In this document: in pieces, positions 3,480-43,619 of the stretch
Position numbering within the stretch: position 1 is the stretch's first letter
Layout: the number at the start of each line of letters is the position of its first letter
From: an uncultured Solirubrobacterales bacterium
GTDB lineage: Bacteria > Actinomycetota > Thermoleophilia > Solirubrobacterales > Solirubrobacteraceae
Direction of reading: 5' to 3'
Assembly (NCBI GenBank): GCA_963794845.1
Contig: CAWCFD010000002.1
Span: 890,960-954,959 of the forward strand
Length of the DNA stretch: 64,000 bases
Notes under the pieces: generated by a model
Told to the model about the DNA's origin: nothing
Database searches by the model: none
What the model saw: the letters and a program-made list of their open reading frames with translations, nothing else
Position numbers and translations under genes: made by a program

Positions 3480-4535
3480 ATGGGAGCGGATCAGAAAGCT
3501 GCACGCAGAACGCTTCCTAACAGGCGAGTAGGCTCGTCGCTCGTGGAGCAGAGCCCGAAGAAGATACACGTCGTGACCCGCACCTACCTGACGGGCTGGA
3601 CCCTTAACGGATTGCTGCGGCCGGTCAGCGTGCGCTACGGCCCGCAGAAGCTCAAGACGCCTGCCGCGGTGGCATGGGAGCACGAATGGTGGGGGGCGGG
3701 AGCCCCGGCCCTCAACGAGGCGTGCGAGGAGGCGTGCGCCAAGCTTGAGAACTTGCTGCCGGACACGCTCGCTGCCGTCGAGGCTGACTGGCCACTCGAC
3801 ACGCCGACGACGGCCGTCGTCGCTGAACTCATGGCTCTGCATGTCCTTCGCACGCGGGCGTTCCAACAGTGGTTCACTCCTGTTCGGGATGCGTCGCTCG
3901 CCGAGTATCGTGATCGCTTCCCCGACGAGCAGTCATTTGAGCGATGGAAGCGAGACATGCAGACTGATCGGCGGCGCGCAGAACGTTTGCTCAGTGCGAT
4001 GAACAAGCTGAGCACGGTCCTCGGGTCCATGCATTGGTCTCTACTGCGCTTTGACGAGCCGCTGCTGATAACCGGAGATCAGCCGGTCTGCCCGGTGTCT
4101 CTTCCCACGACGGCGCCGGTGCAGCCGATCTCGGCGATGCCGGGCGCCGGCTGGCTCGATACATACGAGGTTAGGTTTCCATTGACCCCGCGCCTCGCGC
4201 TCCTTGCGACGTGGTACATGGGAACAGAGACCGAGCCGATTGCAGGCACCCGGGAGCACGCTGCGAACCTGAACGCGAGCGTTGCTCGCCAAGCATCCGA
4301 GCAGTGGTTCCAAACTCCGGCGTGCGAGCCAGCCTGGCCGGCTGAGACGGAGGGACCGTCACTCCTACTCCCGCTCGCTGCCGACATCCTTCCGGGTTAT
4401 TCCACGGGAAGCGCGGTTGCGTCCCCGCTTCGCAGCCGAACGAGGAAACACGCCGAAGACTTGATCGAGCTACAGGACCACAAGACGGTGATGCTGACCA
4501 GACCAGAAGCTCTATCGCCGTCGGGCGCCGGCTGA
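3480..4535 (+). CDS. DUF4238-like protein
   Basis: HVVTRTYLTGW lies near the N-terminus, followed by LHVLRTRAFQQWF and WSLLRFDEPLLITGDQPV, matching the DUF4238 pattern as I remember it. The true start may be internal. Confidence 0.55.
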   Translation: MGADQKAARRTLPNRRVGSSLVEQSPKKIHVVTRTYLTGWTLNGLLRPVSVRYGPQKLKTPAAVAWEHEWWGAGAPALNEACEEACAKLENLLPDTLAAVEADWPLDTPTTAVVAELMALHVLRTRAFQQWFTPVRDASLAEYRDRFPDEQSFERWKRDMQTDRRRAERLLSAMNKLSTVLGSMHWSLLRFDEPLLITGDQPVCPVSLPTTAPVQPISAMPGAGWLDTYEVRFPLTPRLALLATWYMGTETEPIAGTREHAANLNASVARQASEQWFQTPACEPAWPAETEGPSLLLPLAADILPGYSTGSAVASPLRSRTRKHAEDLIELQDHKTVMLTRPEALSPSGAG

Positions 4536-4728
4536 ACGGGTGGGCTAGCGGAGAGGCTGTCAAGGATCGCACGAGCGCGTGCGTCGATCGGAAGGTCGGG
4601 CATCATCTGCGACGCCCGAACGCATGCTCGGTTGCCCCGCTCTCGGCGAGCATATTGCTAGAGCTATGATCGGTCGGCGCGGGTGCAGAGACTCGACGCG
4701 GGTCCAATCCTGCGCCTAGCATGGCCTG

Positions 4729-10309: not shown

Positions 10310-10431
10310 CTCGCGCCAGTTTCCTCTGCGATCGCCCTTTGCCGAGTTCGCATTCAACTGCAGGCGCGTACCGCCATCGCCACTCAGGCCCGCCCCCAAC
10401 TACGCCCAAAAGCCCTCCCAAGACCGACCGT

Positions 10432-10573
10432 CAAACCCTCAACCAACGTCGCCCGACTCGCGCCAAATCCGCGCCAGTTCAAGCGCGGATCGTGCGGTTT
10501 CGGGCGGTTAACAGCGGTCCCGCGGGGCTGGACACCCGCAGCCGCCAACCGGCCGAATGCGGCTCAACCATGC
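10432..10573. repeat. ~140-bp non-coding repeat, copy A (copy B at 24349..24489)
   Basis: Shared blocks: CAAACCCTCAACCAAC, TCGCGCCAAATCCGCGCCAGT..AGCGCGGATCG, GGCGGTT..CAGCGGTCCCGC, GCTCAACCATGC. The CCGCGC/GCGCGG stem is kept while its loop differs. Indels break every reading frame. Confidence 0.6.
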
Positions 10574-10587
10574 GGAAAACGGCTCAG

Positions 10588-10679
10588 GAAAGCCAAGAAT
10601 CCGGGCGCTGGCAAAAGGCGCGACTTTTCGGCCGGTGGGATTTCAAGACCGGTGCATTCAACCGCTCTGCCACCCTTCC
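10588..10679 (-). pseudogene. truncated tRNA-Ser(UGA)-like gene (intact 5' half only)
   Basis: The minus strand reads GGAAGGG TG GCA GAGCGGTTGAA TGC A CCGGT CTTGAAA, position-for-position like the 5' half of the genuine tRNA-Ser at 27367. After the loop the return strand is offset by 4 nt, and no GTTCGAATC T-arm or matching 3' acceptor strand follows. Confidence 0.45.
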
Positions 10680-10700
10680 GTGTGATCCACAAGGCTAGTC

Positions 10701-10823
10701 GATCCGTTGCGCTCGCTCACCCGGCGCTACGAGCGGCTCGCCCACACCCTCGACGAGCGGCTCGGGCTCAAGCCCGCGCGCGAGACGCGGATCATGTACC
10801 GTGACCTGCTCGGGCAGGGCTGA
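10701..10823 (+). pseudogene. C-terminal remnant of a SARP/BTAD-type activator
   Basis: Start-less frame DPLRSLTRRYERLAHTLDERLGLKPARETRIMYRDLLGQG* is the typical last helix pair of a bacterial transcriptional activation domain. There is no upstream coding continuation. Confidence 0.4.
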
Positions 10824-10834
10824 GGCGCCGGGGC

Positions 10835-10863
10835 TTGACAGTTGCGCATGGACCTGCTATGAA
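10835..10863 (+). promoter_or_regulatory. sigma70/SigA-type promoter of cassette copy 1
   Basis: TTGACA (10835-10840), a 17-nt spacer, then TATGAA (10858-10863). An equivalent TTGACA-N17-TATAAA sits at 41836-41864 in copy 2. Confidence 0.55.
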
Positions 10864-10869
10864 TAGACA

Positions 10870-11111
10870 GTCGCCGTCTGCGGGTGCAGATGGGGGCAAG
10901 AACATAAGACTGGGTTTGGGTCGATCCTCGTGGTCGACGGCAAGCGCTTTGGACGGGACCGTGGAGAGGGACCGGGTCAGAACAGAGAGGGAGTTGTAGT
11001 TCGCGTGGTTTCATTGGGGAATAGCGCAGTTGAGAGGTCGTGCGCGCCTGGCGGGTCCTTTATAGGACGTGTCAGCGTCGCTGACACGTCTCTCTCTCTC
11101 TCTCTCTCTCT
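10870..11111 (+). ncRNA. conserved structured non-coding domain (candidate sRNA or riboswitch-like leader), copy 1
   Basis: ~240 nt downstream of the promoter share long identical blocks with 41870..42110: CATAAGACTGG, GAGAGGGACC, GAGAGGGAG, TGTAGTTCGCGTGGTTTC, TTGGGGAATAGCGCAGTTGAGAG, GGCGGGTCCTTTATAGGACG. Stop codons and indels exclude a shared ORF. The domain ends in a palindrome plus CU tract. Confidence 0.5.
11089..11111 (+). repeat. (TC)11T dinucleotide tract
   Basis: Hand-counted 23 nt, the same length as the tract at 42088..42110. Confidence 0.9.
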
Positions 11112-11486
11112 GCGACTCAAGCGCTAGGCCCCTCCGTCCGGCCTTTCGGCCGGCCGGGATCCCCGAAGGGGGATATGGGGAGGGGCATGCCCTCCTCCGT
11201 CCGGCCCTAACGGGCCGTCCGGGCTCCCCCGAAGGGGGTAAGGGGAAGGCTGGGCTCCTCTGCGATCCTCGCCGCCGCGTAAGCCGGTCGGCGTCCTGCC
11301 CCCGTAGGGGAGGGGGGCTCTCTTGTCCTCTTAAGACGCGCGCGCAAGGCGCGCTGTCTGCCTTTCACGATCGTGGGACGGTCGCTGGCGACCCGGCCTC
11401 CGTTCTGCCTGCGCGGGCTTTGCCCCTGGGCGCCATCTCCCTACCGGGCGTCCAGGGGTCCGCGCGATCCGGGGGGGCATGGTGAG
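11112..11486 (+). promoter_or_regulatory. long GC-hairpin-rich 5' leader upstream of the regulator gene
   Basis: Tandem modules of two hairpins, for example CCGTCCGGCC-TTTC-GGCCGGCCGG followed by ATCCCC-GAAG-GGGGAT, occur twice, with GCGCGC-GCAAG-GCGCGC further downstream. The last ~70 nt (CTGGGCGCCATCTCC..GGGCGTCCAGGGGTCCG) are conserved with copy 2. Confidence 0.45.
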
Positions 11487-12515
11487 ATGGCGGGTGGGCG
11501 TCCAGCGAAGCGTCCCGGCGCGCGTGCGGCGCAGCGATACAACGGCGCTGTCCGCGAGCAGTTGGGTGAGCTTCAGCGCGCGCGGATCATCGGCGCGACG
11601 TTCGAGGTCACAGCGCAGCGGGGGGCGGGCAACGTGACCGTCGCGCACGTCGTGGAGCGCTCGGGCGTGTCGCGGCGCACGTTCTACGAGCATTTCTCCG
11701 ATCGCGAAGACTGCCTGCTGGCGGCGTTCGAGCACGCGCTGGCGCTCGCCTCGGAGCGTGTCGTCCCGGTCTATGAAGCCGAGCAGGGTTGGCGTGAGCG
11801 GATCAGGGCGGGTCTGCTCGCGCTGTTGGCCTTCTGCGATGAGCAGCCGAGCGTCGGGCGCTTGCTCGTGTGCGAGTCGCCGGCCGGTGGTCCGAGGGTC
11901 GATGAGCGCCGCCGGGACGCGATCGCGCTGCTCACCCGGATCGTGGATCGGGGGCGCGGTGAGACCAAGAGCGACACGCTCTCCCCGCTCGTGGCGGAGG
12001 GGACCGTCGGCGGTGTGCTCGCGGTTATCCAGGCGCGGTTGCTGGAATCGAAACGCACCCCGCTGCTTGGCCTGACCAACGAGCTGATGAGCATGATCGT
12101 CATGCCATATCTGGGCGCCTCGGCGGCCAGGCGCGAGCTCGACCGTCCAGTGCCCGCACCGGCGGGCGTCCAGCGCGACGGCGCGCTGCTCTCAGACCCC
12201 TTCAAAGACACCGGCATGCGCTTGACCTACCGCACGGTGCGCGTGCTGCTCGCCGTCTCCGAGCACCAGCGCGCCTCCAATCGCACGATTGGCCAGACCG
12301 CCGGCATCACAGACCCGGGCCAGATATCCAAGCTGCTCGGCCGCCTGGCGCGCCTCGGCCTGATCGAGAACACCGGCCTCGGCCCCGGTCAGGGAGCACC
12401 CAACGCGTGGACCTTGACCGACAAGGGCCGGCAGATCGCCGAGAACATCCGCGCCAACACCAAAGGCAGCCAAAGCACCCTGAAGCGCACAAGCCACGGA
12501 GCCAGCGAGCGATGA
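11487..12515 (+). CDS. TetR-family N-terminal HTH + C-terminal MarR-like winged-helix fusion regulator
   Basis: TVAHVVERSGVSRRTFYEHFSDREDCLL is a TetR_N HTH. The C-terminal LTYRTVRVLLAVSEHQRASNRTIGQTAGITDPGQISKLLGRLARLGLIENTG..NAWTLTDKGRQI is MarR/wHTH-like. Start set at MAGGRPAKR, conserved with copy 2. Confidence 0.7.
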   Translation: MAGGRPAKRPGARAAQRYNGAVREQLGELQRARIIGATFEVTAQRGAGNVTVAHVVERSGVSRRTFYEHFSDREDCLLAAFEHALALASERVVPVYEAEQGWRERIRAGLLALLAFCDEQPSVGRLLVCESPAGGPRVDERRRDAIALLTRIVDRGRGETKSDTLSPLVAEGTVGGVLAVIQARLLESKRTPLLGLTNELMSMIVMPYLGASAARRELDRPVPAPAGVQRDGALLSDPFKDTGMRLTYRTVRVLLAVSEHQRASNRTIGQTAGITDPGQISKLLGRLARLGLIENTGLGPGQGAPNAWTLTDKGRQIAENIRANTKGSQSTLKRTSHGASER

Positions 12516-24240: not shown

Positions 24241-24348
24241 CTATCTAACGACGCCCCGGTCCCGCCTAGGACTCCTCGGAGTTATGCGGCGGGGCTTTGT
24301 CGTTCCATACACGGCCAGCGCAGACCAGCCCGCCACCGTGGTCAGCGG

Positions 24349-24489
24349 CAAACCCTCAACCAACTTCCCCGTTTTCGCGCCAAATCCGCGCCAGTCCGAG
24401 CGCGGATCGAGCGTTTCAGGCGGTTTCCAGCGGTCCCGCTGCGCATCCCACGCGGAGCGGGCGTCTCGCCGAATCCCGCTCAACCATGC
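24349..24489. repeat. ~140-bp non-coding repeat, copy B (copy A at 10432..10573)
   Basis: Same conserved blocks and same orientation as copy A. Confidence 0.6.
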
Positions 24490-41835: not shown

Positions 41836-41864
41836 TTGACACGAGCAGCGTGGTGGTGTATAAA
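41836..41864 (+). promoter_or_regulatory. sigma70/SigA-type promoter of cassette copy 2
   Basis: TTGACA (41836-41841), a 17-nt spacer, then TATAAA (41859-41864). Confidence 0.55.
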
Positions 41865-41869
41865 GACCC

Positions 41870-42110
41870 CATGCCTCGATCCGAAAGGGATCGGGGAAGA
41901 CATAAGACTGGTTTGGGCCGGCCCTGTGGCTAGCCGCAAACGTTTTAGACGGGGAACCTTGGGAGAGGGACCAAGTCGCAACTGAGAGGGAGCTGTAGTT
42001 CGCGTGGTTTCTTTGGGGAATAGCGCAGTTGAGAGTCGTTGTGCGCGTGGCGGGTCCTTTATAGGACGCGTCAGCGGCGCTGACGCGTCTCTCTCTCTCT
42101 CTCTCTCTCT
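41870..42110 (+). ncRNA. conserved structured non-coding domain, copy 2
   Basis: Homologous to 10870..11111 (same blocks). It ends in the palindrome ACGCGTCAGCG-G-CGCTGACGCGT (42066-42088) and the (TC)11T tract. Confidence 0.5.
42088..42110 (+). repeat. (TC)11T dinucleotide tract
   Basis: Hand-counted 23 nt, identical in length to 11089..11111. Confidence 0.9.
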
Positions 42111-42521
42111 GGCCGCCTCAGCCTTCACGGCTTAGGCCGCTCCGCTCCGGCCGCGTCTCGCGGCCGCTTCACCCCGAAGGGGGTGGGGGCATGAGCTGTT
42201 CTTCTCGCGCTCACGCGTCTGCGTGTTGCGCGCACTTGTCGTACCCACGGCCTCAGGCCCCCCTCCGTCCGGCAAGCCGGACGGGATCCCCCCAAGGGGG
42301 GAGATTGAGTGGGTCTCCGGCCTGCAGCCGGACGGGTTCCCCCCTCGGGGGGAGTTTCTCTTTCAAAGTGTCGTACCCACGCGGGATGGTCGCACTAGAC
42401 CCTGCCTCTGTTCTGCTGGACGGGCAACCCCTGGGCGCCATCTCCACGAGGGCGCCTGCGCTCTTGGGCGTCCAGGGGTCCGTCCTACCCATTGTGTGCG
42501 GGTGTGGGAGGAGCCGGTGAG
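42111..42521 (+). promoter_or_regulatory. GC-hairpin-rich 5' leader, copy 2
   Basis: Three double-hairpin modules: CGGCCGCG-TCT-CGCGGCCG + CACCCC-GAAG-GGGGTG; CCGTCCGG-CAAG-CCGGACGG + TCCCCCC-AA-GGGGGGA; TCCGGC-CTGCA-GCCGGA + TCCCCCC-TC-GGGGGGA. TGTCGTACCCACG occurs twice. Confidence 0.45.
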
Positions 42522-43619
42522 ATGGCCGGTGGTAAACGAGCGTCACGGTCTGCTCACGCCGGTACAGGTGACCGGATCGGTCATGGCGCGCGTATCGCGC
42601 AGGCGTATAACGGCGCCGTGCGTGAGCAGCTCGCTGATCTTCAGCGCGCGCGGATCCTCAGCGCGACGTTCGACGTCGTGGCGCAACGGGGGGCGGGGAG
42701 CGTGACCGTCGCTCACGTCGTGGAGCGCTCGGGTGTGAGCCGGCGCACGTTCTACGAGAACTTCGATGATCGTGACGACTGTCTGCTCGCCTCCTTCGAG
42801 CGCGCAGTGACGCTCGCCTCGCAACGGGTCATCCCGGCGTATGAGTCCGAGAAGGGTTGGCGGGAGCGAATCGGGGCCGGCCTGGTCGCGCTGCTCGCCT
42901 TCTGCAATGAGCAGCCGAGCGTTGCTCGGATGCTCGTGTGCGAGTCACTCACAAGCGGCGAGAGAGTCGCCCAGCGCCGGACGGAAATCCTGGCGCGCCT
43001 CACACGGATCGTCGATCAGGGCCGCACCCTTACGGGCACACCCAAAGGGCGCCCGGCAGGCAACTCGGGTATGGCCACGAACGTCTCCCCGCTCGCGGCG
43101 GAGGGGACCGTCGGTGGCGTGCTCGCGGTCATCCAGGCACGGCTGACAGCCTGTCCCCGTGTGGGGGAAGCGAAGCGTGAGCCTCTCATCGTCCTGACTA
43201 ACGAGCTGATGAGCATGATCGTCCTTCCGTACCTCGGTGCTGCAGCAGCGAGGCGCGAGCTCGAGCGTCCGCTGCCCACCTCGGTGAGCGCACCGCGCGA
43301 GGACGCACTCATCTCAGACCCCTTCAAAGCCGCCGGCATGCGCCTCACCTACAGGACGGTGCGGGTATTGATGGCCATCGCCCAGCACCCGGATGGGTCA
43401 AACCGTGTGATCGGTGAGACGGCCGGGATCACAGACCAGGGCCAGATATCGAAGCTGCTCGGTCGCTTGGAGCGGATCGGCCTCGTGTCGAACACGGGGA
43501 TCCACCCCGGTAAGGGCGCCCCGAACTCATGGACCCTCACAGAGGAGGGCCAGCGGATCGCGCAGAACATCCGCGCCAACACCGAAGGCAGCCAAGGCCA
43601 CGGAGCCAGCGAGCGATGA
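42522..43619 (+). CDS. TetR-N / MarR-like-C fusion regulator, paralog 2
   Basis: Colinear with 11487..12515. Shared stretches include TVAHVVERSGVSRRTFYE, AEGTVGGVLAVIQARL, TNELMSMIV, GMRLTYRTVRVL and GQISKLLGRL. Confidence 0.7.
   Translation: MAGGKRASRSAHAGTGDRIGHGARIAQAYNGAVREQLADLQRARILSATFDVVAQRGAGSVTVAHVVERSGVSRRTFYENFDDRDDCLLASFERAVTLASQRVIPAYESEKGWRERIGAGLVALLAFCNEQPSVARMLVCESLTSGERVAQRRTEILARLTRIVDQGRTLTGTPKGRPAGNSGMATNVSPLAAEGTVGGVLAVIQARLTACPRVGEAKREPLIVLTNELMSMIVLPYLGAAAARRELERPLPTSVSAPREDALISDPFKAAGMRLTYRTVRVLMAIAQHPDGSNRVIGETAGITDQGQISKLLGRLERIGLVSNTGIHPGKGAPNSWTLTEEGQRIAQNIRANTEGSQGHGASER

Follow-up and report, generated by a model that had tools for sequence, protein, structure and literature searches.

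A stretch of 64,000 nucleotides (nt) from an uncultured Solirubrobacterales bacterium (CAWCFD010000002.1, positions 890,960-954,959; hereafter the window) carries two copies of a structured RNA element on its + strand, copy 1 at 10869-11111 and copy 2 with its core at 41870-42110. Each lies upstream of a gene for a TetR-MarR fusion regulator, at 11487..12515 (+) and 42522-43619 (+), respectively. The first-pass annotation of this DNA had proposed the segment at copy 1 as a candidate novel small RNA (sRNA) or riboswitch-like leader. The candidate proved real, with conservation far beyond the window: more than 170 family members occur in Solirubrobacterales genomes and soil metagenomes, each with a promoter, the fold, a hairpin and a (TC)n tract. 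Here, we describe the element as the front part of a cis-acting mRNA leader ahead of genes for TetR-MarR regulators or very large secreted proteins. It is the conserved head of a leader that appears to be repeat-controlled, neither an sRNA nor simply a riboswitch, and the kind of mechanism that it suggests is known but rare. The decisive result of the analysis is an open third reading frame: past the tract, two of the three frames close early and the third runs across the spacer to the main gene.

Copy 1 lies behind a promoter at 10835..10863 (+), which reads, as had been claimed, as a -35 box TTGACA (10835-10840), a 17-nt spacer and a -10 box TATGAA (10858-10863); transcription would start at ~10870. 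Copy 2, taken from its promoter through its leader open reading frame (ORF), occupies 41836..42135 (+), with the -35 box TTGACA at 41836-41841 and the -10 box TATAAA at 41859-41864 followed by core, ORF and tract, and it scores 244 bits against a covariance model of the element. Both window copies, and 49 of 50 genome loci, have a TTGAC-type -35 hexamer, 270-290 nt away from where the tract ends, and with it a TAnnnT-like -10 box at a fixed distance; the remaining genome locus is truncated by a contig end. Because its -10 box has a terminal A, the copy 1 promoter is overlooked by a generic promoter scan. Each of the six identical blocks that the copies were said to share is found twice and no more in the window, near 10.9 kb and near 41.9 kb, against a chance expectation of 0-0.03 matches for the three of the six that were searched. 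The terminal hairpin and pyrimidine tract also announced there are a hairpin at 11068-11088 and a perfect (TC)11.5 repeat at 11089-11111. The two cores are 89% identical and the downstream genes 76-80%, both copies standing at the head of a larger paralogous duplication (~11.5-19.6 kb versus 42.5-50.4 kb). A covariance-model search of the window found these two copies and no third.

The genome sample consisted of 80 loci of related regulators, all from Solirubrobacterales metagenome-assembled genomes. The element is present in 50 of them at 76-90% nucleotide identity, the regulator proteins being just 50-70% identical. It shares the strand of the regulator in these loci and lies 150-650 nt upstream of it, except in L075 and L080, where it is downstream of the fetched regulator gene. 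Two further regulator loci start within the tract at a contig end, and the other 28 of the 80, which gave no BLAST match, do lack the element. A scan of metagenomes for the pattern of hairpin plus tract added at least 120 loci. Where the metagenome elements have sufficient flank, the regulator is the next gene in 35 of 74; the other elements precede genes for secreted proteins of very large size, which have a signal peptide together with NHL-, FN3- or PD40-like repeats. In the loci examined, a long gene lies 50-480 nt downstream of the element on the same strand, and there are several element copies per genome. A phage or plasmid origin was rejected, since neither viral contigs nor PLSDB plasmids gave a match to the element.

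Contigs frequently start or stop in or beside the element or its (TC)n tract (L017 and L045, at the start of the locus, and many metagenome contigs, for example L081, L097, L117 and L123), so that this multi-copy repeat probably disrupts short-read assembly and copy numbers per genome are probably underestimated. In one locus, L143, a degenerate, shortened second element (4516-4673 on the - strand; 58.8 bits, 158 nt spanning the whole model) sits ~170 nt upstream of an intact copy at 4107-4349.

A small leader ORF begins inside the element. In copy 1 it spans 11005..11127 (+), 40 codons from GTG to TAG (11125-11127), and reads through helices P4-P6 of the fold described below and through the tract, which encodes (Ser-Leu)4; in copy 2 it spans 42004..42135 (+) and ends at TAG 42133-42135. 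A Shine-Dalgarno-like, GA-rich motif, GAGAGGGAG (10985..10993, +), ends 11 nt before the GTG, and homologs have a purine-rich motif at the same fixed position. GTG opens the ORF in 156 of 161 homologs and ATG in the other 5, which represent at least three sequence backgrounds and carry no compensating change in P3. No stop codon interrupts the ORF in any of 156 distinct homologs; after column shuffling, 12.0±2.4 sequences contain one, with a minimum of 5. Both remaining frames equal their shuffles, and stops come and go in them at 10-11 codon positions.

Variability by codon position is 0.698, 0.700 and 0.739, which shows no 3-nt periodicity; the synonymous fraction of the ORF is not above that of the stop-containing frames, the synonymous sites in P6 are invariant, and the leader peptides match no Pfam or NCBIfam family. 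A functional small protein was rejected for want of periodicity, synonymous excess and a family match. An open frame with no codon signal implies that it is openness that is selected, not the peptide sequence, and that the conserved nucleotides must be explained otherwise, at the level of RNA or DNA. The first-pass annotation had considered an ORF at 10930-11127 to be destroyed by stops in copy 2, and the conservation therefore not to be protein-coding. This is right for the 5' third of that ORF; from the GTG at 11005 onward, the frame is open in copy 2 and in all homologs. Likewise, the nucleotide conservation is indeed unexplained by the peptide, but the ORF is kept open, and tract, stops and spacer frame are tied together. 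Intergenic leaders of this kind hold constrained reading frames that gene callers miss or miscall.

The perfect (TC)11.5 tract at 11089..11111 (+) is the proposed frame-setting repeat, and the copy 2 tract (42088-42110) has the identical length. Every homolog found has the tract, at 19-31 nt and nearly always uninterrupted; of 168 elements, 104 have 23 nt, 24 have 29 nt, 17 have 25 nt and 13 have 27 nt. Where the leader ORF stops varies with this length. Counted from the tract, the stop is at +22 in 75 of the 104 loci with 23 nt and in 21 of the 24 with 29 nt (jointly 96 of 128), and at +15 in 10 of the 13 with 27 nt; with 25 nt, the ORF continues for 80-386 nt in 14 of the 16 loci with data. 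The stop position thus depends on tract length modulo 3, so adding or losing a unit moves the ORF into another frame. We label each frame according to its offset from the base that directly follows the tract. Frame A (23 or 29 nt) comprises 77% of loci, including both window copies, frame C (25, 31 or 19 nt) comprises 12%, and frame B corresponds to 27 or 21 nt; in all, 23% of loci sit outside frame A.

The tract changes length between relatives, and does so faster than its flanks change: nearest neighbours are mostly unequal, and among 15 tight clusters (no more than 6 differences over 89 nt), 11 contain more than one tract length. Expansions lead to 29 nt more often than to 25 or 27 nt (20 of 36; binomial p = 0.005 versus a one-third share), and those to 29 nt arose on many backgrounds. 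In DASZGH01, a genome assembled from Illumina reads, frames A and C are represented by two loci each. Long-read assemblies are the source of some tract lengths, which are possibly wrong; the Illumina metagenome contigs alone give the same pattern.

Past the tract, the median first stop lies at +22 in frame A and at +15 in frame B, in most loci as a conserved TAG. Frame C is open across the full spacer in 136 loci, regardless of the tract length that each has at present, over a median of 224 nt (interquartile range 139-272, maximum 440). The 10,504 codons of these stretches contain no stop in frame C, against 333 in frame A and 264 in frame B. The first frame C stop falls -4 to +12 nt from the start codon of the downstream long ORF in 117 of the 136 loci, with junctions of the forms TGAnATG, ATGA or GTGA overlaps, TGATG and TAGATG; in at least 4 of the remaining 19, frame C stops right before a ribosome-binding site and ATG. 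Before the tract, a TAG or TAA in the P5 loop shuts frame C, and frame B meets a TGA in the 3' arm of P6; a ribosome that started upstream could thus reach the tract in no frame but that of the leader ORF.

Frame C of copy 1 (11066..11485, +) is open from just after the P5-loop TAG (11063-11065), via P6, the tract and a 375-nt spacer, to TGA 11483-11485, and the regulator ATG follows one base on, at 11487. Frame C of copy 2 (42065..42520, +) is open to 42517, and its TGA, 42518-42520, ends one base before the regulator ATG at 42522. In loci with a 25-nt tract, the leader GTG opens a single continuous ORF that extends as far as the main gene's start codon. No sigma-70-like promoter was predicted between element and regulator in either window copy.

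The spacer also carries hairpins. The commonest type has a GC hairpin followed by UUGGUUUCU, which begins at +57 from the tract, 35 nt past the frame A stop, and which covaries, four of its seven pairs having compensated changes. A GC hairpin with a U-rich tail lies within 170 nt after the tract in 110 of 150 loci, +57 being the modal class. The spacer modules of copy 1 (11131..11357, +) comprise two hairpin-pair repeats, from 11131 and from 11194, and a hairpin at 11299-11316 followed by GCTCTCTTGT; copy 2 has a hairpin with a U-rich tail at 42337-42353. The hairpin-pair module, CCTCCGTCCGGC-loop-GCCGGNCGG and then (A/G)TCCCC-loop-GGGGGAT, is inserted once or twice past the tract in some leaders (window 11131-11190, 11194-11255 and 42262-42353; L025, L084, L153, L164 and L167). 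Its exact 12-mer is restricted to the two leaders in the window, and all copies of the module leave frame C open.

Upstream of the tract, the element is a structured RNA of the + strand with helices P0-P4 supported. P0 (10874..10893, +) is a 5' hairpin of variable sequence whose stem is kept, with all six of its pairs double-changed and 87-92% of alignment cells paired. The single-stranded ACAUAAG that follows (10902..10908, +) is invariant in its alignment columns and marks a sharp 5' boundary of strong conservation; BLAST matches start at query position 66-68, equal to window 10900-10902. P1 (10920..10938, +) is a GUCGAU/GUCGAC hairpin with a pyrimidine-rich loop, CCUCGUG (95-97% of cells paired; double changes in six of seven pairs in an alignment of 102 sequences). 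P2 (10957..10978, +; 93-96% paired) has an 8-nt loop, GAGAGGGA, at 10964-10971, with compensatory variants in L070, L013 and window copy 2, and P3 (11003..11027, +; 95-96% paired) is a composite hairpin whose basal stem contains the GTG start and in which one pair flips from U-A to A-U. P4 (11037..11052, +) is a GUCN.../...NGRC hairpin that shifts register among homologs; its outer three pairs are well kept and its inner pairs align poorly (69-77% paired), with compensatory variants seen by eye. P6 (11068..11088, +) is a near-invariant hairpin of nine base pairs within a 25-nt perfect palindrome, paired in 100% of cells. Its variation amounts to a single compensated change from C-G to U-A and, because it scarcely varies, it is uninformative either way on covariation. 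The P5 helix was set aside as weakly backed, since covariation is absent and 13-22% of its cells are unpaired.

The compensated C-to-U variant of P6, GACGUGUC, found at window 11069 and in L008 and L025, creates a GUG in frame C. This GUG accounts for a 138-codon ORF listed in copy 1 (11069-11485), ahead of which no ribosome-binding site is evident.

The fold was tested over 45 pairs with slid-position controls and 500 shuffles. In a MAFFT alignment of 51 sequences, 93.0% of cells are paired, against 34-43% in the slid controls, and covariation is 0.216 against 0.05-0.07, with 17 pairs changed on both sides. An alignment of 102 sequences fitted to the covariance model, which favours structure by construction, gives 92.3% paired (slid controls 26-44%), covariation of 0.278 (0.015-0.066) and 24 double-changed pairs. 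None of the 500 shuffles reached the observed pairing or covariation in either alignment, and the bulk of the covariation is carried by P0 and P1. The compensatory helix changes noticed between the two copies are therefore real. G.U pairs are common, so the helices fit + strand RNA only, and many unpaired bases of the structured domain are invariant. The element had been described as belonging to no known Rfam family, and this too was borne out: at the gathering threshold, Rfam 15 finds two tRNAs in the whole window and nothing else, and a permissive scan of 10700-11600 returns chance-level microRNA and sRNA matches, far under threshold.

Three GA-rich segments, the P2 loop GAGAGGGA, GAGAGGGAG and UUGAGAG, total ~22 nt, and RNAalifold as well as minimum-energy folds pair them with the (UC)n tract. 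The partners on either side do not vary, which puts this pairing beyond the reach of covariation. The 5' fold probably controls initiation on the leader ORF.

The reading that we favour, and to which we give about an even chance, is that the leader ORF acts as a frame switch coupled to attenuation and driven by repeat slippage, like that of the pil1 operon. Transcription would begin at the conserved promoter, and the first ~135 nt would fold into P0-P3, presenting the GA-rich ribosome-binding motif together with the GTG in the base of P3. Ribosomes would translate the leader ORF via P4-P6 into the perfect (UC)n tract and, since the repeat unit is 2 nt, tract length would set the frame in which they exit. 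In frame A (23 or 29 nt) they would stop at the conserved UAG ~22 nt past the tract, and in frame B (27 or 21 nt) at the other UAG, ~15 nt past it. Both short frames would thus stop at least ~35 nt upstream of the terminator-like hairpins, leaving expression low or OFF. In frame C (25, 31 or 19 nt) the ORF would cross the spacer to the main start codon (UGAnAUG, AUGA or UGAUG); the ribosome would melt the spacer hairpins, suppress premature termination and pass to the main gene by termination-reinitiation, giving the ON state. That the long frame ends exactly on the main start codon suggests such translational coupling.

The frame would change mainly when slipped-strand events add or remove TC units in the DNA, amounting to heritable phase variation at many paralogous loci. 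Slippage in the DNA is favoured because the tract is perfect and far longer than a ribosomal slip site needs, because its length varies between close relatives, and because 23% of loci are in another frame, two of four being in frame C in the one Illumina genome.

Several points weigh against this frame switch. Translation of the ORF, termination at the hairpins, the identity of the ON frame and the switching itself are what we infer from sequence. Neither window copy has the TAG at +15 or the hairpin at +57, their spacers being of different modular type, and the terminator step rests there on weaker hairpin matches. There are three pairs of near-identical elements, and the one that differs in tract length (26 versus 29 nt, with ≤4 differences per 200 nt) comes from a long-read assembly, a kind that is error-prone in repeats. 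The strong mode at 23 nt would also fit purifying selection on a fixed length, as expected of frameshifting or of pairing with the GA-rich segments. The proposed switch needs neither the large conserved 5' fold nor the near-invariance of P6, which leaves the element partly unexplained, and we know of no such contingency loci from soil Actinobacteria.

Some of these points are better accommodated if the three-frame leader is the same and the frame is changed during expression, by -2 (equivalent to +1) slippage of the ribosome or by slippage of RNA polymerase on (UC)n, with the upstream fold tuning its efficiency. We regard this as unlikely overall, though it is the strongest of the alternatives. 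On (UC)n, a shift of 2 nt leaves UCU and CUC codons perfectly re-paired, hairpin H7 lies after the tract, and 77% of loci are in frame A, with their strong 23-nt mode, as if there were one functional configuration. The ~22 nt of GA-rich segments come close to the 23 nt of the tract with which they are predicted to pair, and the conserved fold, otherwise unexplained, would be given a role. However, a 7-nt slippery site suffices for ribosomal frameshifting, whereas a perfect tract of 19-31 nt that varies among close relatives is typical of DNA slippage. The 23% of loci in other frames, with direct in-frame fusions in 12%, also speak against it, and the GA-segment pairing, invariant on both sides, is not open to covariation. 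We know of no bacterial example of -2 frameshifting at dinucleotide repeats, although no literature search for one was completed. A more elaborate version would make the 5' fold a sensor that governs the frequency of 2-nt slippage by ribosomes or RNA polymerase on (UC)n, for example through pairing of the three GA-rich segments with the tract, and thus an RNA-controlled -2/+1 switch linking leader ORF and main gene, with mutation of tract length as a second, heritable layer across dozens of paralogous secreted-protein loci; this we hold to be quite improbable.

The next alternative is a riboswitch-like or protein-responsive leader in which the fold gates initiation on the ORF and, when the ORF is untranslated, Rho loads on (UC)n and terminates transcription, the frames being incidental. 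The element does have a conserved, covarying domain with many invariant unpaired bases and a start codon within P3, and aptamer, upstream ORF and Rho occur together in documented mycobacterial leaders (PMC12810186, PMC11260477). According to the account of Guerin 1998 in PMC5021804, an artificial (rUrC)n site, there (rUrC)15, is an efficient Rho site and, within a translated region, terminates only when translation is uncoupled. The tract described here is, by comparison with the site in that account, natural, has 11.5-15.5 repeats rather than 15, and is flanked by G-rich hairpins. Primary binding sites of Rho have a footprint of ~57 nt (PMC6144790), and the tract, at 23-29 nt between a GC hairpin on its 5' side and G-rich hairpins on its 3' side, falls short of a C-rich, G-poor, unstructured stretch of ~57-80 nt. 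Genes of a single pathway were not found downstream, and the mixture of regulators and secreted proteins points to no single ligand. Above all, Rho termination leaves unexplained why frame C is free of stops over 10,504 codons and ends on the main start, and why two TAGs close the other frames, which is why we demoted (UC)n as a Rho site or terminator tail to a rival explanation. Rho is not needed to explain the frame layout, and as a sole account this one has, in our estimation, a slim chance; control of this kind may operate in addition to the frame switch.

A stand-alone, trans-acting sRNA of ~240 nt, present in multiple copies, ending at P6 and pairing through its CU-rich tail with GA-rich ribosome-binding sites of its targets, is very improbable. 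It would suit the strong conserved promoter, the sharp fall of conservation at the tract end and the several copies per genome. However, P6 is followed by UCUC... and not by a run of U, so that the element has no terminator of its own; it is tied to its neighbouring gene, lying 50-480 nt upstream of a long gene on the same strand in the loci examined, with no promoter-like site between the two in the window; and the constraints on ORF and frame extend past the supposed 3' end. The layout of promoter, fold and terminator-like stem had earlier been taken for that of either a stand-alone sRNA or an attenuator of the downstream genes; the attenuator half is supported, and the sRNA half is not, given the missing U tract and the constraint past 11111. 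Least probable of all is that the conservation reflects a functional protein of 40-45 amino acids, or DNA operators such as the 25-bp P6 palindrome for the adjacent TetR-MarR regulator: the ORF is open in all homologs, the palindrome near-invariant and the recognition helices of the regulator invariant, but the peptide shows no codon periodicity, synonymous excess or family match and changes its C-terminus in sequence and frame, the G.U pairs are sensible only in + strand RNA, and the regulator is not the next gene in about half of the metagenome copies.

The closest known system to the favoured frame switch is the pil1 pilus operon of Streptococcus gallolyticus, whose leader peptide contains GCAGA repeats; its short peptide stops 39 bp before a terminator, which is overridden by the long peptides that out-of-frame repeats yield (Danne et al. 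2014; PMC3894217). As in pil1, a leader ORF behind a promoter contains a repeat tract, the common frame encodes a short peptide that ends a few tens of nt ahead of a terminator or terminator-like hairpin (39 bp in pil1 and, in our main spacer type, 35 nt), an out-of-frame tract encodes a long peptide into or past that hairpin, and the target is a surface or secreted-protein locus. The main spacer type thus has both the short-frame stop before the hairpin and the alternative frame that extends past it. Unlike in pil1, the repeat unit is 2 nt, (TC)11-15 against (GCAGA)22, and of the two alternative frames just one is long, remaining open over as much as 440 nt. A large, covarying, conserved RNA fold precedes the ORF here, and the element, in uncultured soil Actinobacteria with many paralogous copies per genome, is known from sequence alone.

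Frame switching by a similar repeat is found in outer-membrane protein genes of Helicobacter pylori such as oipA, where CT dinucleotides are repeated in the 5' coding region (PMC10564699). There, as is proposed here, a hypermutable pyrimidine repeat sets the frame and controls multi-copy families of exported proteins, and in both cases it encodes a Leu/Ser-rich peptide; that repeat, however, is in the signal-peptide part of the structural gene, whereas ours is in a separate upstream ORF, and any effect on the main gene would run via coupling or attenuation. The CTCTT repeats of Neisseria opa are a similar case. The perfect repeat of hypermutable length and its position inside a predicted frame-setting ORF are what one expects of a contingency locus. 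As a candidate frameshift site, the element has a tract that would re-pair after a 2-nt slip and a hairpin that follows, but the tract varies from 19 to 31 nt and 23% of loci are already in another frame.

The mycobacterial leaders Mbox-rv1805A and B12-ppe2 combine a riboswitch, a translated upstream ORF and Rho, and expression of the main gene depends on translation of that ORF, in ppe2 by termination-reinitiation (PMC12810186, PMC11260477). They share with our element an actinobacterial structured domain followed by an upstream ORF, here a predicted one, but theirs are known aptamers (Mbox, B12) without a repeat, and ours has no Rfam match and suggests no ligand. Translation of a leader ORF likewise chooses between termination and read-through in the classical ribosome-mediated attenuators and arrest-peptide leaders trpL, hisL, tnaC and speFL (PMC12360218). 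In common with these, a short leader ORF would decide the outcome; unlike them, ours has no run of regulatory codons related to the operon and no conserved arrest motif, and the variable would be the frame, not the speed of the ribosome.

Contingency loci are generally viewed as a trait of host-adapted pathogens. To our knowledge, control by repeat slippage in a leader peptide has been detailed for one streptococcal pilus operon; the same logic appears here as a large, sequence-conserved family in soil Solirubrobacterales, ahead of giant secreted proteins and TetR-MarR regulators. If the frame switch is true, free-living soil bacteria too would use stochastic ON/OFF switching of their surface and secreted-protein repertoires, and a new structured RNA motif would be added. 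A frame kept open for hundreds of nucleotides only to bring ribosomes to the next start codon would be an unusually clean case.

The regulator downstream of copy 1 is an unusual fusion of TetR_N with a MarR-like winged helix according to Pfam (342 amino acids), and an identical protein with the same start is called in public data (P0001). With E = 1e-10 as the upper limit, its family numbers over 5,000 members, the named ones from Solirubrobacteraceae, and has invariant recognition helices and the invariant motifs SGVSRRTFY and GMRLTYRTV; the leader precedes only a sub-clade. In each of the two paralogous clusters (11.5-20.2 kb and 42.5-51.2 kb), the regulator is followed by secreted proteins of 1000-1300 amino acids, mostly without a Pfam match. 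The last gene of the clusters has a third, partial paralog at 62.4-63.3 kb, for which the window contains no leader.

Upstream of copy 1, a repeat of ~145 nt that ends in GCTCAACCATGC occurs at 10429-10573 and at 24346-24489 (75-85% identical), the first copy just upstream of the promoter region and the second 13.9 kb away. At ~10610-10690 on the - strand lies what we take to be a likeness to the 5' half of tRNA-Ser(UGA) with an enlarged anticodon loop, which neither ARAGORN nor Rfam calls. A 38-codon ORF at 10707-10823 (+) ends right before the copy 1 promoter and, from a match to the last 30 positions of Pfam BTAD (E = 0.003), is probably the remnant of a SARP-type activator.

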